The notes under the pieces are model-generated. The model was not told the DNA's origin, ran no database searches, and saw nothing but the letters and a program-made list of their open reading frames with translations. The position numbers and the translations under genes are program-made. A DNA stretch of 64,000 nt from Felis catus (lineage: Eukaryota), in the NCBI RefSeq assembly GCF_018350175.1, contig NC_058369.1:10850001-10914000 (forward strand). The letters are read 5' to 3'. Below, one piece after another: positions 28,243 to 64,000 of the stretch (its first letter is position 1; the number at the start of each line of letters is the position of its first letter).

Positions 28243-29345
28243 AAGAATTAGCATTTCTGGGAACCATTTCTACACTCTGCAGGGGAAAGATGGCTGATCG
28301 GGTCTCCTTGGGTTGTATCCATTCCCAGCATAACCAAGAATGTGGGGGCTGTGAGGACAGGGAAATTCACCGCCCAGAAGACCACGCTGTCTTGTGTGTG
28401 TGTGACTTGTGGAGGATGAGCAGTCCTCACAACAGGGGCCAGGACGCCTCAATCCCAAGGTAACACCATACATGGGCCAGAGCTCAGTCAAGAGCAGGCA
28501 CCAAGACGGGGATCTGTGTCAATTCATGGGATGGCTTTGCAGCACGATGAATACCAAGGGAGAGGCAGTGTGGACAAGGACGGCCCTGTGCCTGGAGGTC
28601 ACAGTTGTCGCAGAGGGGCCACATCCCTCCTCACATGTGTGACAGAGTCTGTCATCTGTGTCCCTCAAGATCATTCCCCTTGCAGCGCTGGCTTTGCTTT
28701 TTCGCTTGAACATTTGAAACAAGTATCTTCCTCAGGGCCTTTGCACTGGCCATTCCCTCTGCCAGGCACACACTTCCCCCATATCCTGTGTCTATGTCTC
28801 TGTCTTACATGACGTCTGTGCTCCAATGCCACCTGTGTACAGAATTTGCCTAAATGCCATTAAAATAGAATGCCCTATTTGCTCTCTGCTTTATCCCTGT
28901 TTCCCATTTCTTCACAGCACACCTCACCATCAAAAAGGTGAGAGAATCAAAAGATAATTGTATCAAAAAGATAATTGTATAATTGTCTTCTTTGCTTACG
29001 TATTTTTTCTCCATTGCTGTAGGGATTTTTGTTCTTCAGCACTCTATACTCATTGCCTAGGTAGTGCCTGAAACCTGGTCAGCACTCAATTTTATTCCTG
29101 AATACTTGAAGCATTTCTCAGGAAAAGTATAAAATACATGATTTCTTAGGAAAGAAGCTGATTGACAATAAAAATATATCAGATGTGGCAGCGATGATTC
29201 CCTAAAGGGGACCATATCCATGCACAACATATTAAAAGGAATTTCTGGACTGCAAAATAAAAAAAAACAGTCACATTTCAATTTTGTGAGTTATACAAAT
29301 TTGTGTTTTTTTATTTCCCTCTTTCTCTGAGGTCACCTCCACCAG

Positions 29346-30314
29346 ATGGAACCAAGCAATGAAACAAAATTTTCAAAGTTTCTTCTTCTGGGATTTTCAG
29401 AGGAACCAGAACTGCAGCCCCTCATATTTGGGCTTTTCCTCTCCATGTACCTGATCACTGTGTTTGGGAACCTGCTCATCATCTTGGCCATCAGCACAGA
29501 CCCCAACCTCCACACGCCCATGTACTTCTTCCTGGCCAACCTGTCCTTTGTAGACATCTGCTTCACCTCCACCACCGTCCCGAAGATGCTGGTGAACATC
29601 CAGACTCAGAGCAAAGTCATAACCTATGCAGGCTGTATCACACAGATTTATTTTCTCATACTCTTTGCTGTGATGGACGTCTTCCTCCTGAGTGTGATGG
29701 CCTATGACCGGTTTGTGGCCATCTGTCACCCCCTGCACTACACGATCATCGTGAACCCCCGGCTCTGTGGGCTGCTGGTTCTTGTGTCCTGGATCATGTG
29801 TGTCCTGCATTCCCTGTTACAAAGTTTAATGATGTTGCGGCTGTCCTTCTGTACACACTTGCATATCCCCCACTTTTTTTGTGAACTTAATCAGATGCTC
29901 CAACTGGCCTGTTCTGATACCTTTCTTAATAACGTGGTGATGTATCTTGCAGCTGTCTTGTTGGCTGGTGGTCCCTTCATTGGGATCCTTTACTCTTACT
30001 CTAAGATAGTTTCCTCCATATGTCGGATCTCATCAGCTCAGGGAAAGTGTAAAGCATTTTCTACCTGTGCATCTCATCTATCGGTTGTCTCCTTATTTTA
30101 TTGTACGATGCTCGGCGTGTACCTGAGCTCTGCTGCTACCCACAGCTCACGGTCAAGTGCCACAGCCTCGGTGATGTACACGGTGGTCACGCCCATGCTG
30201 AACCCCTTCATCTACAGCTTGAGGAACAAAGACATGAAAAGGGCTCTGAAAGCATTCTTTGGGAAGGAGACCCTTACATGGCCAATCGTCATGAGATTGA
30301 AGAAGTGCCTATGA
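29346..30314 (+). CDS. Olfactory receptor, OR7A subfamily (OR3), intact, 322 aa
   Basis: Full ORF with N-terminal NET sequon, GN in TM1, [48 protein letters not shown]. Closely resembles human OR7A5/7A10/7A17-type proteins; exact orthology cannot be assigned by eye. Confidence 0.96.
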
Positions 30315-38854: not shown

Positions 38855-39604
38855 TTTTTGGAGTGGGATTCATCCTCAGAACAGGAGTACACGGTCTAAT
38901 ATGTACTAAGGTGAATACAGAAGCCAGAACTCAGTCAACACACAGTACTCAGGAGGGATCGATGTCAATTTACAGGAGACTTTGCAAGTAGAGTCTAAAA
39001 TACAAGCAGTACATAGTGTGGGTGAGTGACTCTGTTTTCTTGCGGGTTAACCAGCAGCACCCATTTCCTTGAAATTGCCTCACACCGTCTCTGATTTCCC
39101 TCCTGTTCACTCCCCTTCCTACACGTGCTTCCTGTTTGGGACCCACATACCTCAAAGTAGGATCATCCTCAGGGCCTTAGCAGAGGCCATTCCCTCAGCC
39201 AGCACACACTTCCCCAGAGATGCTCGTGGCTCCTGCCTTCCTTTCCCTGAGGTCTCCGTTCAGATGTCGCCTTGTTCACTGTTCTTGACTGAACACCAAT
39301 TACAAAATAACACTTGTATCCACACTCTGCTTACACCTACTCTTGTTCCCTTCACAGCACTTGACACCCTCTGATGTCCTATTGATATTTTGATTTCCTT
39401 CTGTTCATTCTCCATCACTGGATTATACTGGCTTTTGATTTTCCCAGACTCATTGCCTCGACAATGCCTGGAATATGTTTGACGCTCACTACAACTTCTT
39501 GACAGCAAAATACAAATCATACCATTGCAACAATGTGAGTGACACTGTTCAGGTGAAAATTAATGATGTCTCCCATCGTCTTTCCTCGTGGTCAGTGCAA
39601 CCTC

Positions 39605-40594
39605 ATGGAACCAGGAAATGATACACGGACATCAGAATTTCTGCTTCTGGGATTTTCAGAGGGTCCAGAACAGCAACCCCTCGTATTTGGGCTTTTCCTC
39701 TCCATGTACCTGATCACTGTGTTTGGGAACCTGCTCATCCTCCTGGCCGTCAGCTCTGACTCCCGCCTCCACACCCCCATGTACTTCTTCCTGGCCAACC
39801 TGTCCTTTGTAGACATCTGCATCACTTCCACCACCGTCCCGAAGATGCTCTGGAACATCCAGACCCAGAGCAAAGTCATAACCTATGAGGACTGCATCAC
39901 ACAGGTGAACTTTTTCATAATCTTTTCAGGATTGGACATCTGCCTCCTGGCCATTATGGTCTATGACAGGTTTGTGGCCATCTGTCACCCCCTGCAATAC
40001 ACGGTCATCATGAGCCCCCGGCTCTGTGCACTGCTGGTCCTGGTGTCCTGGATCACGAGTGTCCTGCATTCCTTGTTGCAAACTTCAATGGTGTTGCGGC
40101 TGTCCTTCTGTACAGTCTTGGAAATCCCCCATTTTTCCTGTGAACTCAATCAGATGATCCAACTTGCCTGTTCTGACACCTTTCTTAATAACTTGGTGAT
40201 GTATTTTGCAGCTATCCTAGTGGGTGGTGGTCCTTTCGTTGGGATCCTTTACTCTTACTCTAAGATAGTTTCCTCCATACGTGGGATCTCATCAGCTCAG
40301 GGCAAGTATAAGGCATTTTCCACCTGTGCATCTCACCTCTCGGTTGTCTCCTTATTTTATTGTACGGGCCTCGGAGTGTACCTGAGCTCTGCTGCTACCC
40401 AGAGCTCCCACTCAAGTGCCACAGCCTCGGTGATGTACACGGTGGTCACGCCCATGCTGAACCCCTTCATCTACAGCCTGAGGAACAAAGACATAAAGAA
40501 GGCTCTGAGGAGATTCTCTGCGATGGCAGTTAGAAAAGGTCCAATTGTCCTGTGGTTGAAGAATTTACCAGGATTGCAAGCCTCAAAGTCTTAG
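39605..40594 (+). CDS. Olfactory receptor, OR7A subfamily (OR4), open ORF of 329 aa
   Basis: Start placed at MEPGNDTR (ATG 39605) by comparison with paralogs; the upstream in-frame ATGs probably lie in the intron. All OR motifs are present, with variants [10 protein letters not shown] and PHFSCE. Confidence 0.93.
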
Positions 40595-51446: not shown

Positions 51447-52379
51447 TTACATCACTTGAACGCAAAAAATTCTTTTCAGAGCACTCTTTATGTCTTTGTT
51501 CCTCAGGCTGTAGATGAAGGGGTTCAGCATGGGCGTGACCACCGTGTACATCACTGAGGCTGTGGCACTTGACTGTGAGCTCTGGGTAGCAGCAGAGCTC
51601 AGGTACACGCCGAGCATCGTACAGTAAAATAAACACACGACCGACAGGTGAGACGCACAGGTGGAAAACGTTTTATACTTGCCCTTAGCTGATGCAATCC
51701 CACGTATAGAGGACACTATCTTGGAATAAGAGTAAAGGATCCCGGCAAAAGGACCACCACCCAGCAGGACAGCTGCAAGATACATCACCACGTTATTAAG
51801 AAAGGTGTCAGAACAGGCAAGCTGGAGCATCTCATTGAGTTCACAAAAAAAGTGGGGGATGTGCAAGTGTGTACAGAAGGACAGCCGCAACATCATTAAA
51901 CTTTGTAACAGGNNNNNNNNNNNNNNNNNNNNNNNNNNNNNNNNNNNNNNNNNNNNNNNNNNNNNNNNNNNNNNNNNNNNNNNNNNNNNNNNNNNNNNNN
52001 NNNNNNNNNNNNNNNNNNNNNNNNNNNNNNNNNNNNNNNNNNNNNNNNNNNNNNCAGCAAAGAGAATGAGAAAATAAATCTGTGTGATGCAGTCCTCATA
52101 AGTTATGACTTTGCTCTGAGTCTGGATGTTCACCAGCATCTTTGGAATCGTGGTGGAGGTGAAGCAAATATCTACGAAGGACAGGTTGGCGAGGAAGAAG
52201 TACATGGGAGTGTGGAGGTTGGGGTCTGTGCTGATGGCCAAAATTATGAGCAGGTTGCCAAACACAGTGATCAGGTACATGGAGAGGAAAAGCCCAAATA
52301 TGAGGGGCTGCAGTTCTGGTCTCTCTGAAAATCCCAGAAGAAGAAATTCTGAAATTCGTGTTTTGTTGCTCAGTTCCAT
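51447..52379 (-). CDS. Olfactory receptor, OR7A subfamily (OR5, OR3-like), probably intact; TM3-TM4 hidden by N gap 51913-52054
   Basis: Visible sequence is open and shares diagnostic residues with OR3 ([25 protein letters not shown]). The 142-N gap equals the length of the matching OR3 segment (29671-29812). Confidence 0.85.
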
Positions 52380-52428
52380 GTGGTGGAGGTGGCTTCTTGG
52401 AAAGAAGGGAATAATGTGAGTACATTTC

Positions 52429-52646
52429 TTTTTTTTTTTTTTTCAACGTTTATTTATTTTTTGGGACAGAGAGAGACAAAGCATGAGCGGGGGAGGGGCA
52501 GAGAGAGAGGGAGACACAGAATCGGAAACAGGCCCCAGGCTCTGAGCCATCAGCCCAGAGCCTGACGCGGGCTCGAACTCGCGGACCGCGAGATTGTGAC
52601 CTGGCTGAAGTCGGACGCTTAACCGACTGCGCCACCCAGGCGCCCC
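52429..52646 (-). mobile_element. Young felid-type SINE just upstream of the OR5 coding exon
   Basis: 17-bp TSD TAATGTGAGTACATTTC at 52412-52428 and 52647-52663. Confidence 0.95.
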
Positions 52647-53799: not shown

Positions 53800-56700
53800 A
53801 TGTCTGGGATGCAGCAAAGGCCGTCATAAGAGGAAAATATATAGCAATCCAGGCCTTCCTAAAGAAGGAAGAAAGATCTCAGATACACAACCTATCCTTA
53901 TGCTTTAAGGAGCTGGAAAAAGAACAGCAAATAAAACTCAAAACCAGCAGAAGACAGGAAATGATAAAGATTAGAGCAGAAATTAATGCTATCGAAACCA
54001 AAAAAAAAAAAAAAAAACAGTAGAACAGATCAATGAAATCAGAAGCTGGTTCTGTGAAATAATTAATAAAACTGATAAACTTCTAACCAGTTTGATCAAG
54101 AAGAAAAAGGAAAGGACCCAAATAAATAAAATCAAGAATGAAAGAGGAGACATCACAACCAACNNNNNNNNNNNNNNNNNNNNNNNNNNNNNNNNNNNNN
54201 NNNNNNNNNNNNNNNNNNNNNNNNNNNNNNNNNNNNNNNNNNNNNNNNNNNNNNNNNNNNNNNNNNNNNNNNNNNNNNNNNNNNNNNNNNNNNNNNNNNN
54301 NNNNNNNNNNNNNNNNNNNNNAAATCGAATTAGTAATAAAAAATCTGCCAAAAAACAAGAGTCCAGGGTCAGATGCAAATTCTATCAAATATTTAAGGAA
54401 GAGTTAACACCTATTCTCTTGAAACTGTTCCAAAAAAAAAAAAAAATAGAAATGGAAGGAAAACTTCCAAACTCTTTCTATGAAGCCAACATTACCTTGA
54501 TTCCAAAACCTGACAGAGACCCCACTGAAAAGGAGAACTAGAGACCAATTTTCCTGATGAACATGGATGCAAAAATCCTCAACAAGATATTAGCCAACCA
54601 GATCCAACAATACATTAAAAAAAGTATTCACCACGACCAAGCAGGATTTATACCTGGGGTGCAGGGCTGGTTCAGTATCTACAAAACAATTAACGTGATT
54701 CATCACATCAAAAAAGAAAGGACAAGAACCATATGATTCTCTCAATAGATGCAGAGAAAGCATTTGACAAAATACAGCATCCTTTCTTGATAAAAACCCT
54801 CAAGAAAGTAGGGATAGAAGGAGCATACCTCAAGATCATAAAAGCCATATATGAACCACCCAACGCTAATGTCATCCTCAATGGGGAAAAACTGAGAGCT
54901 TTCCCCCTAAGGTCAGGAACAACACAGGGATGTCCACTCTCGCCACTGTTATTCAACTTAGTATTGGAAGCCTTAGCCTCTGCGACCAGACAACACAAAG
55001 AAATAAAAGGCATCCATCCAAATCGGCCAGGAGGAGATCAAACTTTCACTCTTCGCAGATGACATGATACTCTATATGGAAAACCCGAAAGATTCCACCA
55101 AAAACTGCTAGAACTGATTCATGAATTTGGCAAAGCTGCAGGATATAAAATCAATGCGCAGAAATCGATTGTATTCCTATACACCAACAATGAAGCAACA
55201 GAAAGAGAAATCAAGGAATTGATCCCATTTACAGTTGCACAAAAAACCATAAACTACCNNNNNNNNNNNNNNNNNNNNNNNNNNNNNNNNNNNNNNNNNN
55301 NNNNNNNNNNNNNNNNNNNNNNNNNNNNNNNNNNNNNNNNNNNNNNNNNNNNNNNNNNNNNNNNNNNNNNNNNNNNNNNNNNNNNNNNNNNNNNNNNNNN
55401 NNNNNNNNNNNNNNNNNNNNNNNNNNNNNNNNNNNNNNNNNNNNNNNNNNNNNNNNNNNNNNNNNCAGAGCTAGGACAAATAATCCTAAAATTTATATGG
55501 AACCGGAAAAGACCCTGAATTACCAAGGCTATCTTGAAAAAGAAAACCAAAGCAGGAGGCATCACAATCCCAGACTTCAAGCTATACTACAAAGCTGTAA
55601 TCATCAAGACAGTATGGTACTGGCACAAGAACAGACACTCAGATCAATGGAACAGAATAAAGAACCCAGAAATGGACCCACAAACCTATGGCCAACTAAT
55701 CTTTGACAAAGCAGGAAAGAATATCCAATGGAATAAAGACAGTGTCTTCAGCAAGTGGTGCTGGGAAAACTGGACAGCAACTTGCAGAAGAATGAACCTG
55801 GACCACTTTCTTACACCAGACACAAAAATAAACTTAACATGGATGAAAGACCTAAATAGAAGGCGGGAAGCCTTCAAAATCCTTGAGGAGAAAGCAGGCA
55901 AAAACCTCTTTGATCTTGGCCACAGCAACTTCTTACTGAACACGACTCTGGGGGCAAGGGAAACAAAAGCAAAAATGAACTGGGACCTCATCAAAACAAA
56001 AAGCTTCTGCACAGTGAAGGAAACGATCAGCAAAACTAAAAGGCAACCGACAGAATGGGAGAAGATATTTGCAAATGACATATCAGAGAAAGGGTTAGTA
56101 TCCAAATTCTATAAAAAACTTATCAAACTCAACACCCAAGAAACAAATAATCCATTGAAGAAATGGGCAAAAGACACGAATAGACACTTCTCCAAGGAAG
56201 ACATCCAGATGGCCAACCGACACATGAAAAAATGCTCCACATCACTCATCATCAGGGAAATACAAATCAAAGCCACAATGAGATACCACCTTACACCTGT
56301 CAGAATGGCTAACATTAACAACTCAGGCAACAACAGATGTTGGCGAGGATGCAGAGAGAGAGGATCTCTTTTGCTTTGTTGGTGGCAACGCAAGCTGGTG
56401 CAGCCACTCTGGAAAACAGTATGGAGGTTACTCAAAAAACTAAAATTAGAACTACCCTACGACCCAGCAATTGTACTACTAGGCATTTATCTACTAGGGA
56501 TACAGGTGTGCTGTTTCGAAGGGACACATGCACCCCCATGTTTATGGCAGCACTATCAACAATAGCCAAAGTATGGAAAGAGCCCAAATGGCCATCGATG
56601 GATGAATGGATAAAGAATATGCGGTATGTAGATATACAATGGAGTATTACTCGGCAATCAAAAAGAATGAAATCTTGCCATTTGCAACTACATGGATGGA

Positions 56701-57035
56701 ACTGGAGAGTATTATGTTAAATGAAATTAGTCAGTCAGACAAAGACAAAAATCATATGACTTCACTCATATGAGGACTTTAAGAGACAAAACAGATGAAT
56801 ATAGGGAATAGAAACAAAAATAATATAAAAACAGGGAGGGGGCAAAACAGAAGGGACTCATAAATATGGAGAACAAACTGAGGGTTATTGCAGGGGTTGT
56901 GGGAGGGGGGATGGGCTAAATGGGTAAGAGGCACTAAGGAATCTACTCCTGAAATCATTGTTGCACTATATGCTAACTAATTTGGATGTAAATTTAAAAA
57001 AATAAAAAGTTAAATTGAAAAAAATTTAAAAAATA
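53800..57035 (+). mobile_element. 5'-truncated LINE-1 (ORF2 with RT and C-terminal domains, 3' UTR, poly-A), disrupted
   Basis: [59 protein letters not shown]; felid-type 3' UTR; stops, frameshifts and two N gaps. Confidence 0.95.
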
Positions 57036-57199
57036 AACTAGATTGAAGATATATATATATATTAAACATATGTATTAAACATATTAAACAAATGTATGTA
57101 TGTATATATACACATATATATATACACACATATATGCATACATACATTTGTTTAATAAGTGGAAAGACAGGGATGGTGAATGAAATGGATGAGGCAGAG

Positions 57200-57858
57200 T
57201 GTGCAGAATAAGCTTAGGAGTTCCCTGAGCTTGCACCGATGAGTTAACAAGGCATAAAGAAAGAGAAGCCACAGGATGAAGGCATCCAACATTAGGCAAA
57301 CAGGGCAAAGGTCCCCAGTTTAGGACAAAAGTATAGGAATAGGAAATCTCAGCATGGAAGCATCCAAAATGAGGTAAAAAGATTAGATATTCAGGGCGGT
57401 AATGCCACCCCCATTTAGTACCCAGGAAGGAAGGACCCAAATAGGTCAACAGGTAAACAGGGCTATGGACCTCAGCAAGGGGAAGTTGCCCCAAGGGAAG
57501 CTAATTAGCAAAAGAAAGGTGCCTTATTGACCCCAAGGTAGCATGCTCTGTCTTCTGCCCTAGGCAAGTTTAGGTAAACAGAGGTGGTGCCTCATGTCTG
57601 CTGTAAACAACCACTTGCCCAGTGCCGGGATGTCTTCAAAGCCCCCTTTCCCTCACACACCTGAGTTAATGTTCATGGTTTATTGTCTCTTTGTGCACAT
57701 CCGTCATGCTTGTAAACCTTCTGATCCTAATAAAAATGGAGCAAGGACCTTTACTCGGGGCTCTTGTCTCCTCCCAGACATTAGCCTCTCTTGCATTTTA
57801 ACCCTGCATCCACTCTCTTGCTGGACAAGAGAGAACTCCAGACCCAGAGTCTCTGACA
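57200..57858 (+). repeat. 5' LTR of the provirus
   Basis: Starts TGTGCAGAATAAGCTTAGG, ends CTCTGACA, followed by GA and the PBS. Colinear with 63283-63969. Confidence 0.93.
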
Positions 57859-57860
57859 GA

Positions 57861-57878
57861 TGGTGACCCCGACATGAT
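57861..57878 (+). promoter_or_regulatory. Primer binding site complementary to tRNA-Trp
   Basis: TGGTGACCCCGACATGAT matches 17/18 of TGGTGACCCCGACGTGAT, the complement of the vertebrate tRNA-Trp 3' end and the ASLV PBS. The mismatch is a CpG-type decay. Confidence 0.88.
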
Positions 57879-58079
57879 CAGAGTCAAGAGGACTATAGGC
57901 TGATGTGGGCAGAACCCGGGGTGGCCAGGAGGCGGTGCAACTCAAAGACTGCAGGACCCACGGAAAGACTAAAGAGCTCCAAGAAAAATGCACGGGGTTA
58001 CAGTCTCTTCCTGACAAGGTAAGAGATAAAGTGAAAGTATATTACGATTTGCTGCTGCTGAACTTTTGAGAGATTTATT

Positions 58080-59110
58080 ATAGGAAACTCCCTCTCCCCA
58101 AAACAGGAACAATACATTCGTATTTTATAATCATTGGGAAAGGTGGCCGACACTATCCTCAGTCAGAAGGCACTCCTTAAATAACTAATGATTACCCAGC
58201 AACACTGCCCTTGGTTCCCAAAACAAGGTATTTGTGGACTTGATATTTGGGAACAAGTAGGGAAAACATTTAAAGCTGGGTATTCTGAGGAGGTTAGTGT
58301 CCCCCAAAGATAATCCTCGCTTAGCCCATTGACCATACTGCCCTTGAGTTCAGAGGATGTAGATAAAGATGTAAACTTACCCAGGGGCTCCTGGGTGGCT
58401 CAGTCAGTGAAGGGTCTGACTTCAGTTCAGTTCATGATCTCACGGCTCATGAGTTCAAGCCCCATGTCAGACTCTGTGCTGACAGCTCAGACCCTGGGGC
58501 CTGCTTCGGATTCTGTGTCTCCCTCTCTCTCTGTCCCTCCCCTGCTCATGCTCTGTCTCTCTCTCTCTCCTTCAAAACAAATAAACATTAAAAAAAATAA
58601 TTTAAAAGAAAGATTAAAGATGTAAAATTACCCCAAATAGAGGAAAACCCTGAACTTTTCATAGTCAACCTGTGCCTTCGGTGCCTTTGCAGCCAAAAGA
58701 TACTCCTCCTCTCCCAAAAGCGTGGGAAGATACGGAGCCTCTAAAAACCTCACCGACCGTTTCCGATAAAGTCCTCACCCCAATGCGAAAGTACTTTAAG
58801 GAAGCCCGTAAGGCCGGTAAGTTCCAGCGGTTTCCCGCTGTCAGGCAAAGTGGGCAATAGGTCCATGGAGGCCTGCTCTTTCCAGTAGCAAAAGAATTGC
58901 AAAAATCAGTTCAGCTGTATGTCCATCACAGCCCTATTACAATCGACATTTTGGAAAATACTTGGGGTACTTATTCCATGGGTGCCTGGGACTGGGGCTG
59001 TCTTATGAGCATCATTTTGACCCCAGCCCAGTATGCTGTCGGTGCCCAAGAGCTTCATGCTGCTTGCGTGGCTCCCGCTATGCAGAACTTTGACACTGCT
59101 ATTCCGGTGT
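58080..59110 (+). pseudogene. gag: Degraded betaretrovirus-like gag (MA and N-terminal CA), interrupted by a SINE
   Basis: HCPWFPKQG...LDIWEQVGKTFK (~58200-58275) resembles the beta MA motif CPWFPEQGTLDLKDWKRIG. KELQKSVQLYVHHSP and WDWGCLMSIILTPAQY (58890-59035) resemble beta CA NTD. Frameshifted; start approximate. Confidence 0.8.
58383..58612 (+). mobile_element. Carnivore SINE nested in proviral gag
   Basis: Canonical body; TSD TAAAGATGTAAA(C/A)TTACCC. Confidence 0.92.
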
Positions 59111-59899
59111 CCTGGGGGGGGGGGGGACTGGGGGGACACACAGATAAAATGTAATTAAGATAGACATGTCTTTTAAATTATTAAAATTAAATATTAAAAC
59201 TTTATTCTACTGAGGCTTACTGAAGGCCAAATAAGCTCCTGTGATCTCTGTTCCAATTTGTTAGCAAAAGGATGACTTACAGTAATAGTTAACTTTGTCT
59301 CACAGTTTTCATGGGTAATTGTTAAAATAGCTTTCAGGGTCTTTGGCAACCTAAAACTTTAGCGTTTTGCTCAAAGGATAAATTGAATTAAGTTCACCGG
59401 ACATTTAGGCCTCTTCCACATCAAACAGAACGCTGAAACATTGCTTACTAAACACGGTTTATGCTTCCGACTTCTTATGGCAAAGAAAAAAAAAAAACGA
59501 AGAACAGGTAAATCCATAAAAAACATGCATTATGCTTAATGGATTCATAAGTCGGCCACCTAAAAACTTTCTGATGTAACAGACAATTCACAGTTGGTTA
59601 CTATTTAATTTTCAATGGAGACGAAAGGTTTCTAAGAGTTAAAATTCTGCTAAATGTTATTAAGGCTGATGGAAATAAGTAACTTCGTATATAAAAAAGT
59701 AAGAGATATGTAAGAAAGATTAAAAAATGAAAATACGTGTTTCTTAAAGGTAATAAACAAATACATAAACATGTTTATTTATAAATAAATATATCTTTAT
59801 ATTTTATAAATAAATAAATAATTTTTATTAAATATAACTTATTGTCTTATAAATTAAAGAAATAATTTGCATATTTATTGACGATTAAATAAACAAATT

Positions 59900-60128
59900 T
59901 ATTTTATTATGATTATAATTGGTTTCCATACAACACCCAGTGCTCATCCCAAAAGGTACCCTCCTCAATGCCCGTCACCCACTTTCCCCTCTCCCGCACC
60001 CCCCATCAACCCTCAGTTTGTTCTCAGTATTTAAGAGTCTCTTATGGTTTGCCTCCCTCCCTCTCTGTAAGTTTTTTTCCCCCCTTCCCCTCCCCCATGG
60101 TCTTCTGTGAAGTTTCTCAGGATCCAAA

Positions 60129-60163
<35 letters not shown>

Positions 60164-60167
60164 AATT
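59900..60167 (-). mobile_element. L1 3' UTR fragment nested in the provirus
   Basis: ttggtttccatacaacacccagtgctcatccc...gaagtttctcaggatcca resembles the reverse complement of 13080-13300; flanked by A/T-rich tracts. Confidence 0.8.
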
Positions 60168-60194
60168 TTAACTAAAAGGGGGGAAAAAAGGACA

Positions 60195-61313
60195 ACGTGC
60201 CCTTTTAAGTTGTTTTACTGAAGCCTTGGTTGGAATTAGCCATTCCTCATGCTCCACAAGGCCAAGCAATTGTAAAATGGGCACATCATACACCCGAAAA
60301 GCATGTTGCACAAACCAAAAAAGGGGGGGAGGCCCTGGCTGTCTGTGATGAGGGAGCCTAAGGCAAGGTGACCGGCCGCAAACATCCCCTCCCAACCAGG
60401 TGGGATGTGTGTGATATTCCTTGGGCACTCCCGCTGCCCAAGAACAAAGGAAAGGGGCAAACAGAGGGTTAACTGATGGAGATCACAGTCCAGCAGGACC
60501 TGAGTCTCCATCACCTCTCCACAGTGATGGGGGAAACAGAGGCAGAAGGAAATGGCTAACAGAACTCCATTTCCTTACACCCTGCAGCCCACTGACAAAT
60601 ACGTGAGGCTGGCAGAGTAAAACGTTTCTCCAGGAACTCCTTGCTGTCTTACTGCTTTGCTAGAGGGAGGAACTATCTTCACTTGACACTAGCTAGGCCT
60701 CCAGTAACCTGGGAGCTGTCTTTAGCATATGAAAATCTCACTGGAAACTTCCCCTGGACCTTACCTCCCCCAGCTCCGTAGTGCAAAACCAGTCTCTCCT
60801 CAGGGTCCCTGGGCAGCTCTTCCTGCCCACGGGTGTCCCCATGCCTCAATAAATCACCTCTTGGCACAAAAGACATCTTCGAGAATTCCTTCTTGGTCAT
60901 CGGCTCCAGACCCCACGAACCCCACTAGCACCCCAAAAAACCTCATCAGTCTGCATGACAACCTCAGCTCCTTCTTGATCATGCTATGATTACTCTTCAC
61001 TTTTTAAGTCTTAATCCTGGAGGATCTTCACTTTTTAAATCCTAATCCTCAAGGACCAACTACAGCTGAGTGACATTCTTCAAAACCAGATCAACCCTAT
61101 CACCCTATGGCGCTACGCAAACCCCCAGAACGGGGGCCCACACGGACTGTCCCCCTTCGACTTCTCACCTGCGGTCGAGGATATGCTTGCGTACTTTCAG
61201 ATTCTGGACTTCTGTGGATTCCCTCTCGGTTGGTGAAGGCTTACCGTGGCATGATGGAGACACCCGGGATATCTTCCCATGAGCCAGGGCATCCGGAGAA
61301 TGATTCTGAATGA
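60195..61313 (+). pseudogene. pol: Integrase C-terminal remnant of pol, split by a nested solo LTR
   Basis: IPHAPQGQAIV..AHHT (60240-60295), PQLLLDHAMITLHFL (~60963-61007) and CGRGYACV...LWIPSRLVK (ORF 61107..61313) match betaretroviral IN motifs (IPYNPQGQAIVERA, LALYTLNFL, WGRGYACV..WIP). Confidence 0.85.
60346..60948 (+). mobile_element. Solo LTR of an unrelated family nested in the proviral integrase
   Basis: Termini TGATGAGG...CCTCATCA (8-bp inverted repeat), TSD GTCTG at 60341-60345 and 60949-60953, AATAAA near 60848. IN similarity resumes after it. Confidence 0.88.
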
Positions 61314-63311
61314 GCAGCCCCTGCCCCCCTTCTTCAAGATGGAAGAAGCTTCTTGGTGGACTCCCCATCCTGAAGCCACTCCACAAACACAAATCCCTGC
61401 CCCTGATAGAACATGGGGAAGCCTTAAACGTCTGTCTACCGGCATCCTCTTACAAGAAAATTACATTGCATATACCCTGATTCACATCTGATGGCCATGA
61501 TTTCCATCACTAACAGGAATTTGATATGTGTAACACTGATTCCCCTCCTTGCTCTCATTTGTCGAAGCCAACCTCAGTATTCATATTGGGCTCATCTCCT
61601 TAACCCACCTATATTTGACAGCCTAACACTTCTGGACTGGGATATTCCTATTGGCCATTATGACACTGAGTTCCTGGGAGGAGCCAATCTTAACCCGCCC
61701 TTCCAAACGGGACAAGACCACTGGCTTTCTATGCCAAGACCTCAATGGTGGCTTCCTCCAGCACCTCCTGTGTGTGTTACTAAACTTAGCAACTTATCTG
61801 CTTGTCTCCAACTAAAAATCAGCTGGCTTTTATATGTACAACCCAAAACCTCTACAAGGCCAGACAATTTTACCTCCTTCTCAGCCACAGGCTTCATATA
61901 CCTCAAAAAAACAAACAAACAAACAAACATATCTCACACTCCTAATGTTCTAGCTTGCTCTACTCTCAAATATTCAGACCATCCCTGGAACATTCTCCCT
62001 GGACAACCTGTTATGGAGAAACAGCATAATCTTTGCTGGGGCAATTGAACTATTATTGACAGGGGTCCTAGAGGACATCGTGAAACAAAATACTGTAATA
62101 AGACCGTACGTTTTGGCCAGCCTAGTAGGGAGAATATTGTTTTGAAAGACAGAGGCTTGTCTGGCCCTATAATTTCTGCACATAAGAGGAGGTTAAAAGG
62201 ACCTGGGCTTGTTAATCTTTGGAAGCTAGGCCTTCCCTTCTTCATTCATACTGTTAGCCAAGGTGAAATTTATGTAAATTGACATATTAACATAACTTGG
62301 GCCTCCCCGCACAACCATCAATTTGCAGGGACCACTATTTGTATCCCTTCTTCCTACCTTCTCTTTGCTACCTCCACTTTACAGATCAAACAACTAGAAA
62401 ATAATTATAATATCTCTACCTCCCAGGGCTGGCTTGTGTCCTGCGTAAATAATGATAATATCACCCAATTAAACATCTCCTCTTTATTAGCACTTAAGCG
62501 CATCTCGGCCTGGCTTCCTGTTAATAGCTCTGAGCCCTATACGCATCCATCGGGACTAGGAGCTCTTTCCAAACTTGTTCAACACTGGCACTCAGCTGCA
62601 AGGCAGAAAGGATGTGTTGGCCTGTTAATCACGGGCATCCTAGCAGCAGCAGGCATTATCGCTTCTGCCACTGTAGCTGGACTCAGCCTGCATCATACTA
62701 TCCAGACAGCCCGTGTCCTTAATAAATTTATGGTCAACACTACGAAGGAATTTATAAGCCAGACTTCCATTGATAAACAAGTTCTGGCCCGCCTCGAAGC
62801 TCTTCAGGCGTCAGTGGAATTTATTGGAAAAAGACAGGAGGCCTTGTCCCTCCGCTCTAAACTGTCCTGCCACCCTAACTACCAGCATATTTGCATGGCT
62901 GGCCTTCCTTATAATCACTCCCAAGCTTGGGATGCTGTCCAGACACACTTTTGCAGTGTCTTCTCTCCCTACAACTCTAACAATATAGAAAATCTAGATG
63001 TGACATTGTGCCGACAGCTACAATATGCAGAAGATCCGCTTAAAAATGAACGGGCTGATTCCTGGGCAATGTGGCGCGACCTAAATCCTTTCTCACTTAC
63101 AGCCAACACTCATCTCAAATTCTGGATAACTCTGGGAAGCGGAATGCTTCCACTGTGTCTCTTTTTGTGTCTTTGCGGAATCACCCTCCAAGCCTTCCGA
63201 CACCAAACGAAGGACCAGGAGCTCATCGTGACGGTCCTGGAACACGAAACTCGAAGAACCAAGAAAAACAAAAGGGGGGAACTGTGGGGAATAAGCTTAG
63301 GAATTCCCTGA
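61279..63311 (+). pseudogene. env: Beta-type env, disrupted in leader/SU; 3' SU + TM open from 62283 to 63311
   Basis: TWGSLKRL leader motif, YSYWAHLLNPP, TIIDRGPRG, WLPVN, fusion peptide after RQKG, heptad, CX7C loop CHPNYQHIC (MMTV CHANYDFIC-like) and a TM anchor. Frameshift near 61490; in-frame TGA at 62046 and 62280. Confidence 0.9.
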
Positions 63312-63969
63312 GCTTGCACAGATGCCTTAACAAGGCATAAAGAGACACAGGATGAAGGCATCCAAGATTAGGTAAAGAGGGCAAAGGCCCCCACCATAGG
63401 ACAAAAGTATAGGAATGGGAAATCTCTGCACAGAAGCATCCAAAATGAGGGGAAAAGATTAGGCATTCAGGACTGAAATGCCCCCCAACTGAATACAATA
63501 GCAGAAAGCTATTTTCCAGGAAGGAAGGACTAAAATTAGGTAAATGGGTAAACAGGGCTGTAGACCTCAGCAAGGGGAAGTTGCCCCAAGGGGAGCTAAT
63601 TAGCAAAAGAAAGGTGCCTTGATGACCCCTAGGTAGCCTGCTTTGTCTGGCTTGCCCCTAGGCCAGTTTAGGTAAACAGAGGTGGCCCCTCAAGTCTGCT
63701 TTAAACAACCTTCTGCCTGGCCCCAGGATTTGTTTTGCATTGACCCAAACCCCTAACACCACACGTCATCAAAGCCCCGCTTCCCCCACGCCCATGAGTT
63801 AATATGGACGGTTCCATTGTCCCTGTGCACACCCATCAAGCCTGTAAGCCTCCAGATCCTAATGAAAGCAGAACAAGGACCCTTACTTGGGGCTCTGGTC
63901 TCCTCCCTGACATTAGCCTCACTCGCATTATAATCTTCCCTTGCTAGACAAGACCCAGAGTCTAGGACA
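63283..63969 (+). repeat. 3' LTR of the provirus
   Basis: Preceded by PPT AAAACAAAAGGGGGGAAC, starts TGTGGGGAATAAGCTTAGG, ends CTAGGACA, followed by TSD GCAGAG. Confidence 0.93.
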
Positions 63970-64000
63970 GCAGAGCAAGGATCCAGTAAGCTCAGGGGGT

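Follow-up and report, generated by a model that had tools for sequence, protein, structure and literature searches.

Avian sarcoma and leukosis viruses (ASLV) prime reverse transcription with tRNA-Trp. In a 64,000-nt stretch of the cat genome (Felis catus, contig NC_058369.1, positions 10,850,001 to 10,914,000; hereafter the window), a provirus at 57194-63975 combines a primer binding site (PBS) of this type with class II coding remnants. A Lys primer is given for all betaretroviruses by Hayward 2013 (PMC3621094) and Lys3 for EqERV-beta1 (PMC3185775), and Phe primers are reported in avibeta2, within a beta-to-alpha continuum, by Bolisetty 2012 (PMC3482500). In primates, the closest described system is ERV-Hako (Frith 2025, PMC11905727), a group II endogenous retrovirus (ERV) that is Trp-primed, has target-site duplications (TSDs) of 5-6 bp and is presented as unique among human ERVs in its primer. 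The combination of class II and Trp PBS is rare and is already published in primates. The cat provirus is very probably a defective beta-type remnant with matrix, integrase and envelope and with a Trp-type PBS shared by its family, likely derived from a Trp-primed class II retrovirus that would have entered the feliform germ line about 30-40 million years (My) ago. Carnivores would then be a second mammalian order with a Trp-primed class II ERV, which weakens the Lys primer as a marker of beta-like elements.

ERV-Hako resembles the cat family in its class, Trp primer, TSD of 5-6 bp, predominance of solo long terminal repeats (LTRs) and age of tens of My. It often carries host sequence (PMC11905727), and the foreign sequence inside some of its copies is a further likeness to the provirus. 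Group II homology, a Trp primer and a TSD of 5-6 bp were all found in the provirus, a likeness by description and not by sequence. Hako differs in its simian host, its 401-nt LTR and its copy number, which is about 47 for LTRs and 16 for interiors, compared with hundreds of LTRs of 660-690 nt in the cat. Two human class II chains with a Trp-type 18-mer, 5465 and 5466, are listed by Vargiu 2016 (PMC4724089, Table S1), where PBS use in ERV families is called unstable. They are also beta-like (supergroup HML, 'HML8?'), with an 18-mer identical to that of avian records and of sister copies of the provirus, and differ in having an LTR of about 416 nt, the label 'R' and a PBS score of 0 in the table. 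These chains would appear to be Hako itself.

For felids, Mata 2015 (PMC4373062) distinguished three class II clades, one of them 'alphabeta', and the available text mentions the PBS nowhere; FcERV beta1-4 are listed in a review (PMC4133949). These ERVs (FcERV beta1-beta4, RV-domestic cat / RV-cougar and the 'alphabeta' clade) share with the provirus the felid genomes and a low interior copy number, but they are defined on pro-pol, which the provirus copy lacks, and the comparison is by description only. The literature search yielded no class II ERV of a carnivore in which the PBS is of the Trp type, which agrees with the preliminary description of the element as a poorly described carnivore lineage; Dfam, Repbase and Song 2013 lay outside that search and, together with Zhu 2018, may already cover the family. 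The surprise that this description saw in a Trp PBS on a class II ERV was overstated in view of the primate precedent, of the Phe primers in birds and of the unstable PBS use.

Primer binding site and its recurrence in other copies

The boundaries of the provirus were confirmed by a pair of LTRs, both TG...CA, flanked by GCAGAG at 57194-57199 and, identically, at 63970-63975; the two LTRs and the perfect 6-bp TSD claimed beforehand were thus found. The 5' LTR (57200-57858, 659 nt, AATAAA at 57729) is separated by 2 bases from the PBS at 57861-57878, and the polypurine tract (PPT), recognized by sequence at 63261-63280, by 2 bases from the 3' LTR (63283-63969, 687 nt). Such 2-base spacers at both LTR edges are what integrase processing leaves. 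A candidate major splice donor, placed from the consensus alone, lies in the leader at 58015-58024. All these features are on the forward strand, in the preserved order LTR-PBS-gag-IN-env-PPT-LTR.

The PBS agrees at 17 of 18 positions with that of an avian leukosis-type record (L059), as had been proposed for a tRNA-Trp type, and at only 7-8 of 18 with those of Lys-primed betaretrovirus records (4/4 tested). The provirus therefore carries the Trp PBS of alpharetroviruses and lacks the Lys PBS of betaretroviruses. No second site with at least 14 of 18 matches to the Trp-type PBS is present in the 64-kb window. A search of viral contigs with the 18-mer, one position being degenerate, gave 12 matches. 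Nine of them, all avian alpharetrovirus-type records, have one 18-mer in common, located directly after U5 and before an avian-type gag or an oncogene fusion; their virus names are presumed from lengths and protein starts. The remaining three, in non-retroviral contigs, were regarded as chance. From the avian PBS match and the ASLV primer, minus-strand synthesis was presumably primed by tRNA-Trp. ARAGORN detected no tRNA in six loci. Since the lone mismatch sits in a CpG and CpG is depleted in the LTRs and the interior (observed/expected ratio of 0.14 in the 5' LTR and about 0.4 in the interior), CpG decay is its likely cause.

Twenty public runs, belonging to 13 studies, contain most of 57560-58360. 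A run of raw reads and three runs of contigs were aligned to the window at 80% likeness, and variants were taken from the best 40 of 439 letter differences, with 697 rows of loose ends standing apart from these. The provirus locus itself was present in all three contig runs with 0-1 differences. Raw-read depth reached about 600 on the LTR and was 4-14 in the leader and gag, which, with 1938 Mb of reads and an assumed genome size of about 2.4 Gb, gives roughly 600-750 LTRs and about ten interiors. The family thus amounts to several hundred LTR copies in feliform genomes, with an interior that is possibly unclassified. Several LTR subfamilies are visible in the reads over 57612-57800.

At the variable PBS site, four of eight raw reads have the avian letter, as do 5, 8 and 6 contigs in the three contig runs. 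The raw reads with this letter carry at least nine other differences from the window and were therefore assigned to other loci. Coverage does not drop at the PBS relative to the adjoining leader, and no change toward a Lys PBS occurs among the best 40 of 439 letter differences. Since other copies carry the avian letter at the mismatch site, Trp priming is likely a trait of the family. The earlier expectation of a Trp PBS across copies within the beta clade was supported in its first part by the recurrence of the Trp-type PBS in other copies, within the 40 differences considered, whereas the placement in the beta clade is weak. Diverged interior contig pieces lie at a distance of 15-20% in the nine of nine worked out, in agreement with the divergence of the LTR pair (see below), and these distances would fit one old burst. 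A PBS-agnostic pattern of the LTR end gave eight matches in metagenomes, taken as chance because no homology extended beyond the pattern.

The copies also bear on the possibility that the Trp PBS was acquired by recombination, in which a beta-like gag/env genome took a foreign LTR-PBS-leader and was spread by helpers as a non-autonomous mosaic. Mosaics are common (PMC11905727), the copy has no enzymes of its own and holds a foreign segment, and the PBS-to-gag leader differs in length by 98-159 nt in other copies (joints from 57869-57878 to 57968-58038). Nevertheless, LTR, PBS, leader and matrix (MA) run together in diverged sister contigs (e.g., X1 record 2; X2 records 11 and 13). In addition, two transmembrane (TM) fragments of the family (P0001 and P0004) run on into an LTR with the same start as that of the provirus, so that LTR and env travel together, and such an origin is considered improbable.

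Coding remnants and phylogenetic position

A Pfam scan of 12 provirus pieces gave domains in four (Gag_p10, N-terminal Gag_p24, IN_DBD_C and GP41), consistent with the beta-type MA, capsid (CA) and integrase (IN) motifs described earlier, MA and IN favouring betaretroviruses. The matrix remnant at 58185-58290 (Gag_p10, E 2e-7) scored 65-87 against six betaretroviral Gags and 23-31 against alpharetroviral and lentiviral ones (alpha 28-31). Gag homology stops in the N-terminal capsid remnant at 58861-59106 (Gag_p24, E 9e-10). In pol, the C-terminal part of the integrase core (60236-60340) scored 57-69 against betaretroviruses and 34 against avian leukosis virus (ALV). Broken remnants of the post-core helix and the C-terminal domain follow at 60959-61250 (IN_DBD_C, E 9e-7) and include a tandem duplication of 31 nt at 60994-61055; in the C-terminal piece, the ALV score is level with that of jaagsiekte sheep retrovirus (JSRV). 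Among 49 retroviral loci, the best matches of the matrix, integrase and env pieces were genomes of the type of JSRV and enzootic nasal tumor virus (ENTV), mouse mammary tumor virus (MMTV) and Mason-Pfizer monkey virus (MPMV). The Gag and IN homology is that of class II, and the matrix is of the beta type (Gag_p10), with neither an alpha-type matrix nor a gamma-type env.

Late capsid, nucleocapsid (NC), dUTPase, protease, reverse transcriptase (RT) and RNase H gave no match in any provirus piece, either in Pfam or against the 49 loci. A weak RT-like match (E 0.007), off-frame and inside env, was taken as chance. Among 15 candidates retrieved with an IN query for a sister Pol, no sister was found, and one of them proved to be MMTV-like (62% to MMTV). 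Rfam gave no matches. Since NC, dUTPase, protease and RT are undetected and foreign DNA stands in their place, this copy is dead and non-autonomous, and self-replication is impossible.

The env gene is of the beta type (61491-63311, forward strand, Pfam GP41, E 7e-22). Its surface subunit (SU) is broken by stops and a microsatellite and the furin motif is degenerate, while 342 stop-free codons at 62283-63308 cover the SU end and the whole TM and extend into the 3' LTR. The TM loop at 62868-62894 is C-X7-C, as in MMTV- and JSRV-type records, and the TM lacks both features of ALV- and MPMV-type records, a CX6CC loop and an immunosuppressive motif. The TM is thus of the beta type, and the env signature claimed beforehand was confirmed. 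An SU-TM association of the non-covalent kind, as in MMTV, JSRV and HML, would be expected. The best relative with a solved structure is the HERV-K TM (E 2e-13), an Atlas search with env returned GP41 clusters, and the provirus TM had no match to the ALV env.

When the 342 residues were scanned, among the 150 of 264 matches listed, fragments of the same family showed 59-88% identity, P0009 and P0079 44-49%, and nearly all others 23-43%. None of 60 candidates was confirmed in a TM search of viral contigs, and no longer env relatives were found among 8000 candidates.

A run of 342 open codons beside a broken gag and IN could suggest that host selection kept the TM half of env open as a co-opted fragment, since such a run would arise by chance with a probability of 0.003-0.21 across the assumed disruption rates and exceeds the expected length at the higher of them. 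Yet the provirus TM has no shorter a branch (0.16-0.17) than P0001-P0003 (0.01-0.20). It is 70-88% identical to family fragments, which does not exceed their identity to one another (71-97%), and the sister fragment P0001 is likewise open over 206 residues. With the SU broken and the furin motif degenerate as well, co-option was rejected as very improbable. No sign of selection or of a host function was seen in this dead relic, whose value lies in paleovirology and annotation.

Phylogenetic position was evaluated on TM with a quick tree of 152 rows and a careful tree of 46 rows hand-picked from it (140 columns). The provirus TM forms a clade with the family fragments, P0009 and P0079 (support 98 in the quick and 99/97 in the careful tree). 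The MMTV/JSRV group excludes this clade with 95/90 support, with an unstable outgroup, and the provirus TM also falls outside the HML-like loops. Joining the clade to the MMTV/JSRV group gave a p-value of 0.03 in the approximately unbiased test (p-AU), a weak result as the group was defined once the tree was known. The viral record L021 (1-7470; 7.5 kb, beta-like, with a Lys3 PBS and a beta-type env) groups with the HML-like loops. In a CA+IN tree of 14 rows and 180 columns, the provirus lies with alpha- and betaretroviruses against lentiviruses (100/99), and in the best tree with the betaretroviruses, on a long branch (76/97).

With MMTV, JSRV/ENTV and HERV-K (HML), the provirus shares the Gag_p10 matrix, IN motifs, a 6-bp TSD and a GP41-family CX7C TM without immunosuppressive motif, but these viruses have a Lys PBS and their TM is only 26-29% identical to that of the provirus. 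The provirus thus appears beta-like in matrix and envelope, yet membership of the genus is not established, since it lacks the Lys primer and its env branches outside the MMTV/JSRV group. The betaretrovirus-like character proposed earlier accordingly holds as class II with beta-type MA, IN and env, whereas the CA+IN placement with betaretroviruses is weak. Avian alpharetroviruses (ALV and Rous sarcoma virus, EAV-HP type) are likewise class II and match the PBS, but their own matrix is unmatched, their IN core match is weak and their env is gamma-type (CX6CC); an alpharetrovirus identity was rejected on these grounds.

Age of the insertion and origin of the primer

The LTR pair differs by 104 substitutions in 630 columns (16.5%; 56 transitions and 48 transversions), with a Kimura two-parameter (K2P) distance of 0.19 and eight indels of 1-35 nt. 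If 3.0-2.3e-9 substitutions per site and year are assumed, this corresponds to 31-41 My. The indels include some of 35, 18, 12 and 9 nt, of which at least the 35-nt one is variable in other copies too, and gene conversion of one LTR of the pair is possible. After entry into the germ line, LTR-LTR recombination would have reduced most copies to solo LTRs, and neutral decay would have followed, with insertion of SINE, L1 and LTR elements and CpG decay at the single PBS mismatch.

Several points weigh against the reading of a beta-type remnant of an old, Trp-primed family. The Trp assignment derives from the avian PBS match and the ASLV primer. The avian letter is missing from about half of the depth at the variable site of the PBS, and a minority of Lys-primed copies may exist within the family, as the alignment favours copies similar to the provirus. 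Old segmental duplication within the olfactory-receptor cluster of the window could account for some of the 'sister' interiors. The capsid piece ranks simian retrovirus (SRV)/MPMV first, but an EAV-HP-type Gag comes third among 12, and a grouping with alpharetroviruses in the CA+IN tree is not rejected (p-AU 0.24) for a copy without RT. As for the date, an assumed rate of 1.2e-9 gives 78 My, and gene conversion may have inflated the LTR age, considering the low transition ratio (56:48) and the large indels.

The preliminary description had supposed a switched primer, that is, a Lys-primed betaretrovirus lineage that changed independently to tRNA-Trp in carnivores. The scores of MA and IN, which favour betaretroviruses over ALV, and the best CA+IN tree agree with this, as do the unstable PBS use reported for ERV families (PMC4724089) and the Lys primer of all betaretroviruses (PMC3621094). 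On the other side, the provirus TM is nested neither in the MMTV/JSRV group nor among the HML-like loops, and no Lys-primed close relative appeared among the best 40 of 439 letter differences. Reading the polarity of the change would require RT and a root, and RT is absent from this copy. Given also the modest CA+IN support and the competing alpha grouping, the switch was not borne out as a result, and it is retained as a tentative explanation that is conceivable on balance.

Inheritance of the primer is the other explanation, in which the cat family and ERV-Hako share a single deep clade of Trp-primed class II elements. The horse U1 element, which is said to have a Trp PBS, would possibly be a further member. 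Hako is group II and Trp-primed with a TSD of 5-6 bp, has a simian age and shows a tendency to carry foreign sequence (PMC11905727); the identical 18-mer occurs in two human class II chains (PMC4724089); and among felid class II ERVs a clade 'intermediate between alpha- and betaretroviruses' has been described (PMC4373062). The cat family, for its part, has a 6-bp TSD and an estimated age comparable to that of Hako, and the provirus TM branches deep. Nevertheless, Hako and the third felid clade are set beside the provirus by description, without sequence comparison, and the LTR lengths differ (401 nt against 659-687 nt). In Pol, the two human chains with the Trp-type 18-mer come nearest to HML6 (PMC4724089), whereas the provirus TM stands apart from HML-like loops, and an identical PBS is dictated by the tRNA and is no sign of kinship. 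Shared descent of the primer is accordingly judged rather unlikely.

The more specific proposal, that the family is the carnivore arm and ERV-Hako another arm of a deep-branching mammalian class II clade that spread between mammal orders about 30-45 My ago, is doubtful, and it would have consequences if true. Trp priming would be an old class II state and not an avian speciality, and alpharetrovirus-type Trp priming would be joined to a beta-type matrix and envelope in a clade unrecognised so far. The Trp-primed family offers a testable handle on the relationship between alpha- and betaretroviruses.

Nested elements and genomic surroundings

The earlier account of the provirus was right in its anatomy and missed the loss of the enzymes, the foreign segment and three nested elements. 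A short interspersed element (SINE), which we take to be of the feliform CanSINE type, is inserted in gag at 58383-58615 on the forward strand, with an 18-bp TSD (58365-58382 and 58616-58633). Late gag, pro and most of pol are replaced by a foreign AT-rich segment of no assigned strand at about 59140-60225 (GC 0.31-0.35), without any retroviral protein match, which presumably resembles the non-coding interiors of class I ERVs. This segment is interrupted by the 3' end of an L1 on the reverse strand (59916-60130), which has matches elsewhere in the window, among them the 3' end of the flanking L1, and whose degraded tail lies at about 59760-59915. The third element is a solo LTR of an unrelated family in the integrase (60346-60948, forward strand, 603 nt), with an 8-bp terminal inverted repeat and a 5-bp TSD (60341-60345 and 60949-60953).

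Directly upstream of the provirus, at 53987-57030, lies the 3' part of an L1 with assembly gaps (runs of N). The provirus stands at the edge of a cluster of olfactory-receptor genes and pseudogenes at 1208-52442 (e.g., 29331-30311 and 39557-40591 on the forward and 51450-52442 on the reverse strand), which are assumed to be OR7-like; a 7tm_4 domain was found in all three open reading frames tested.

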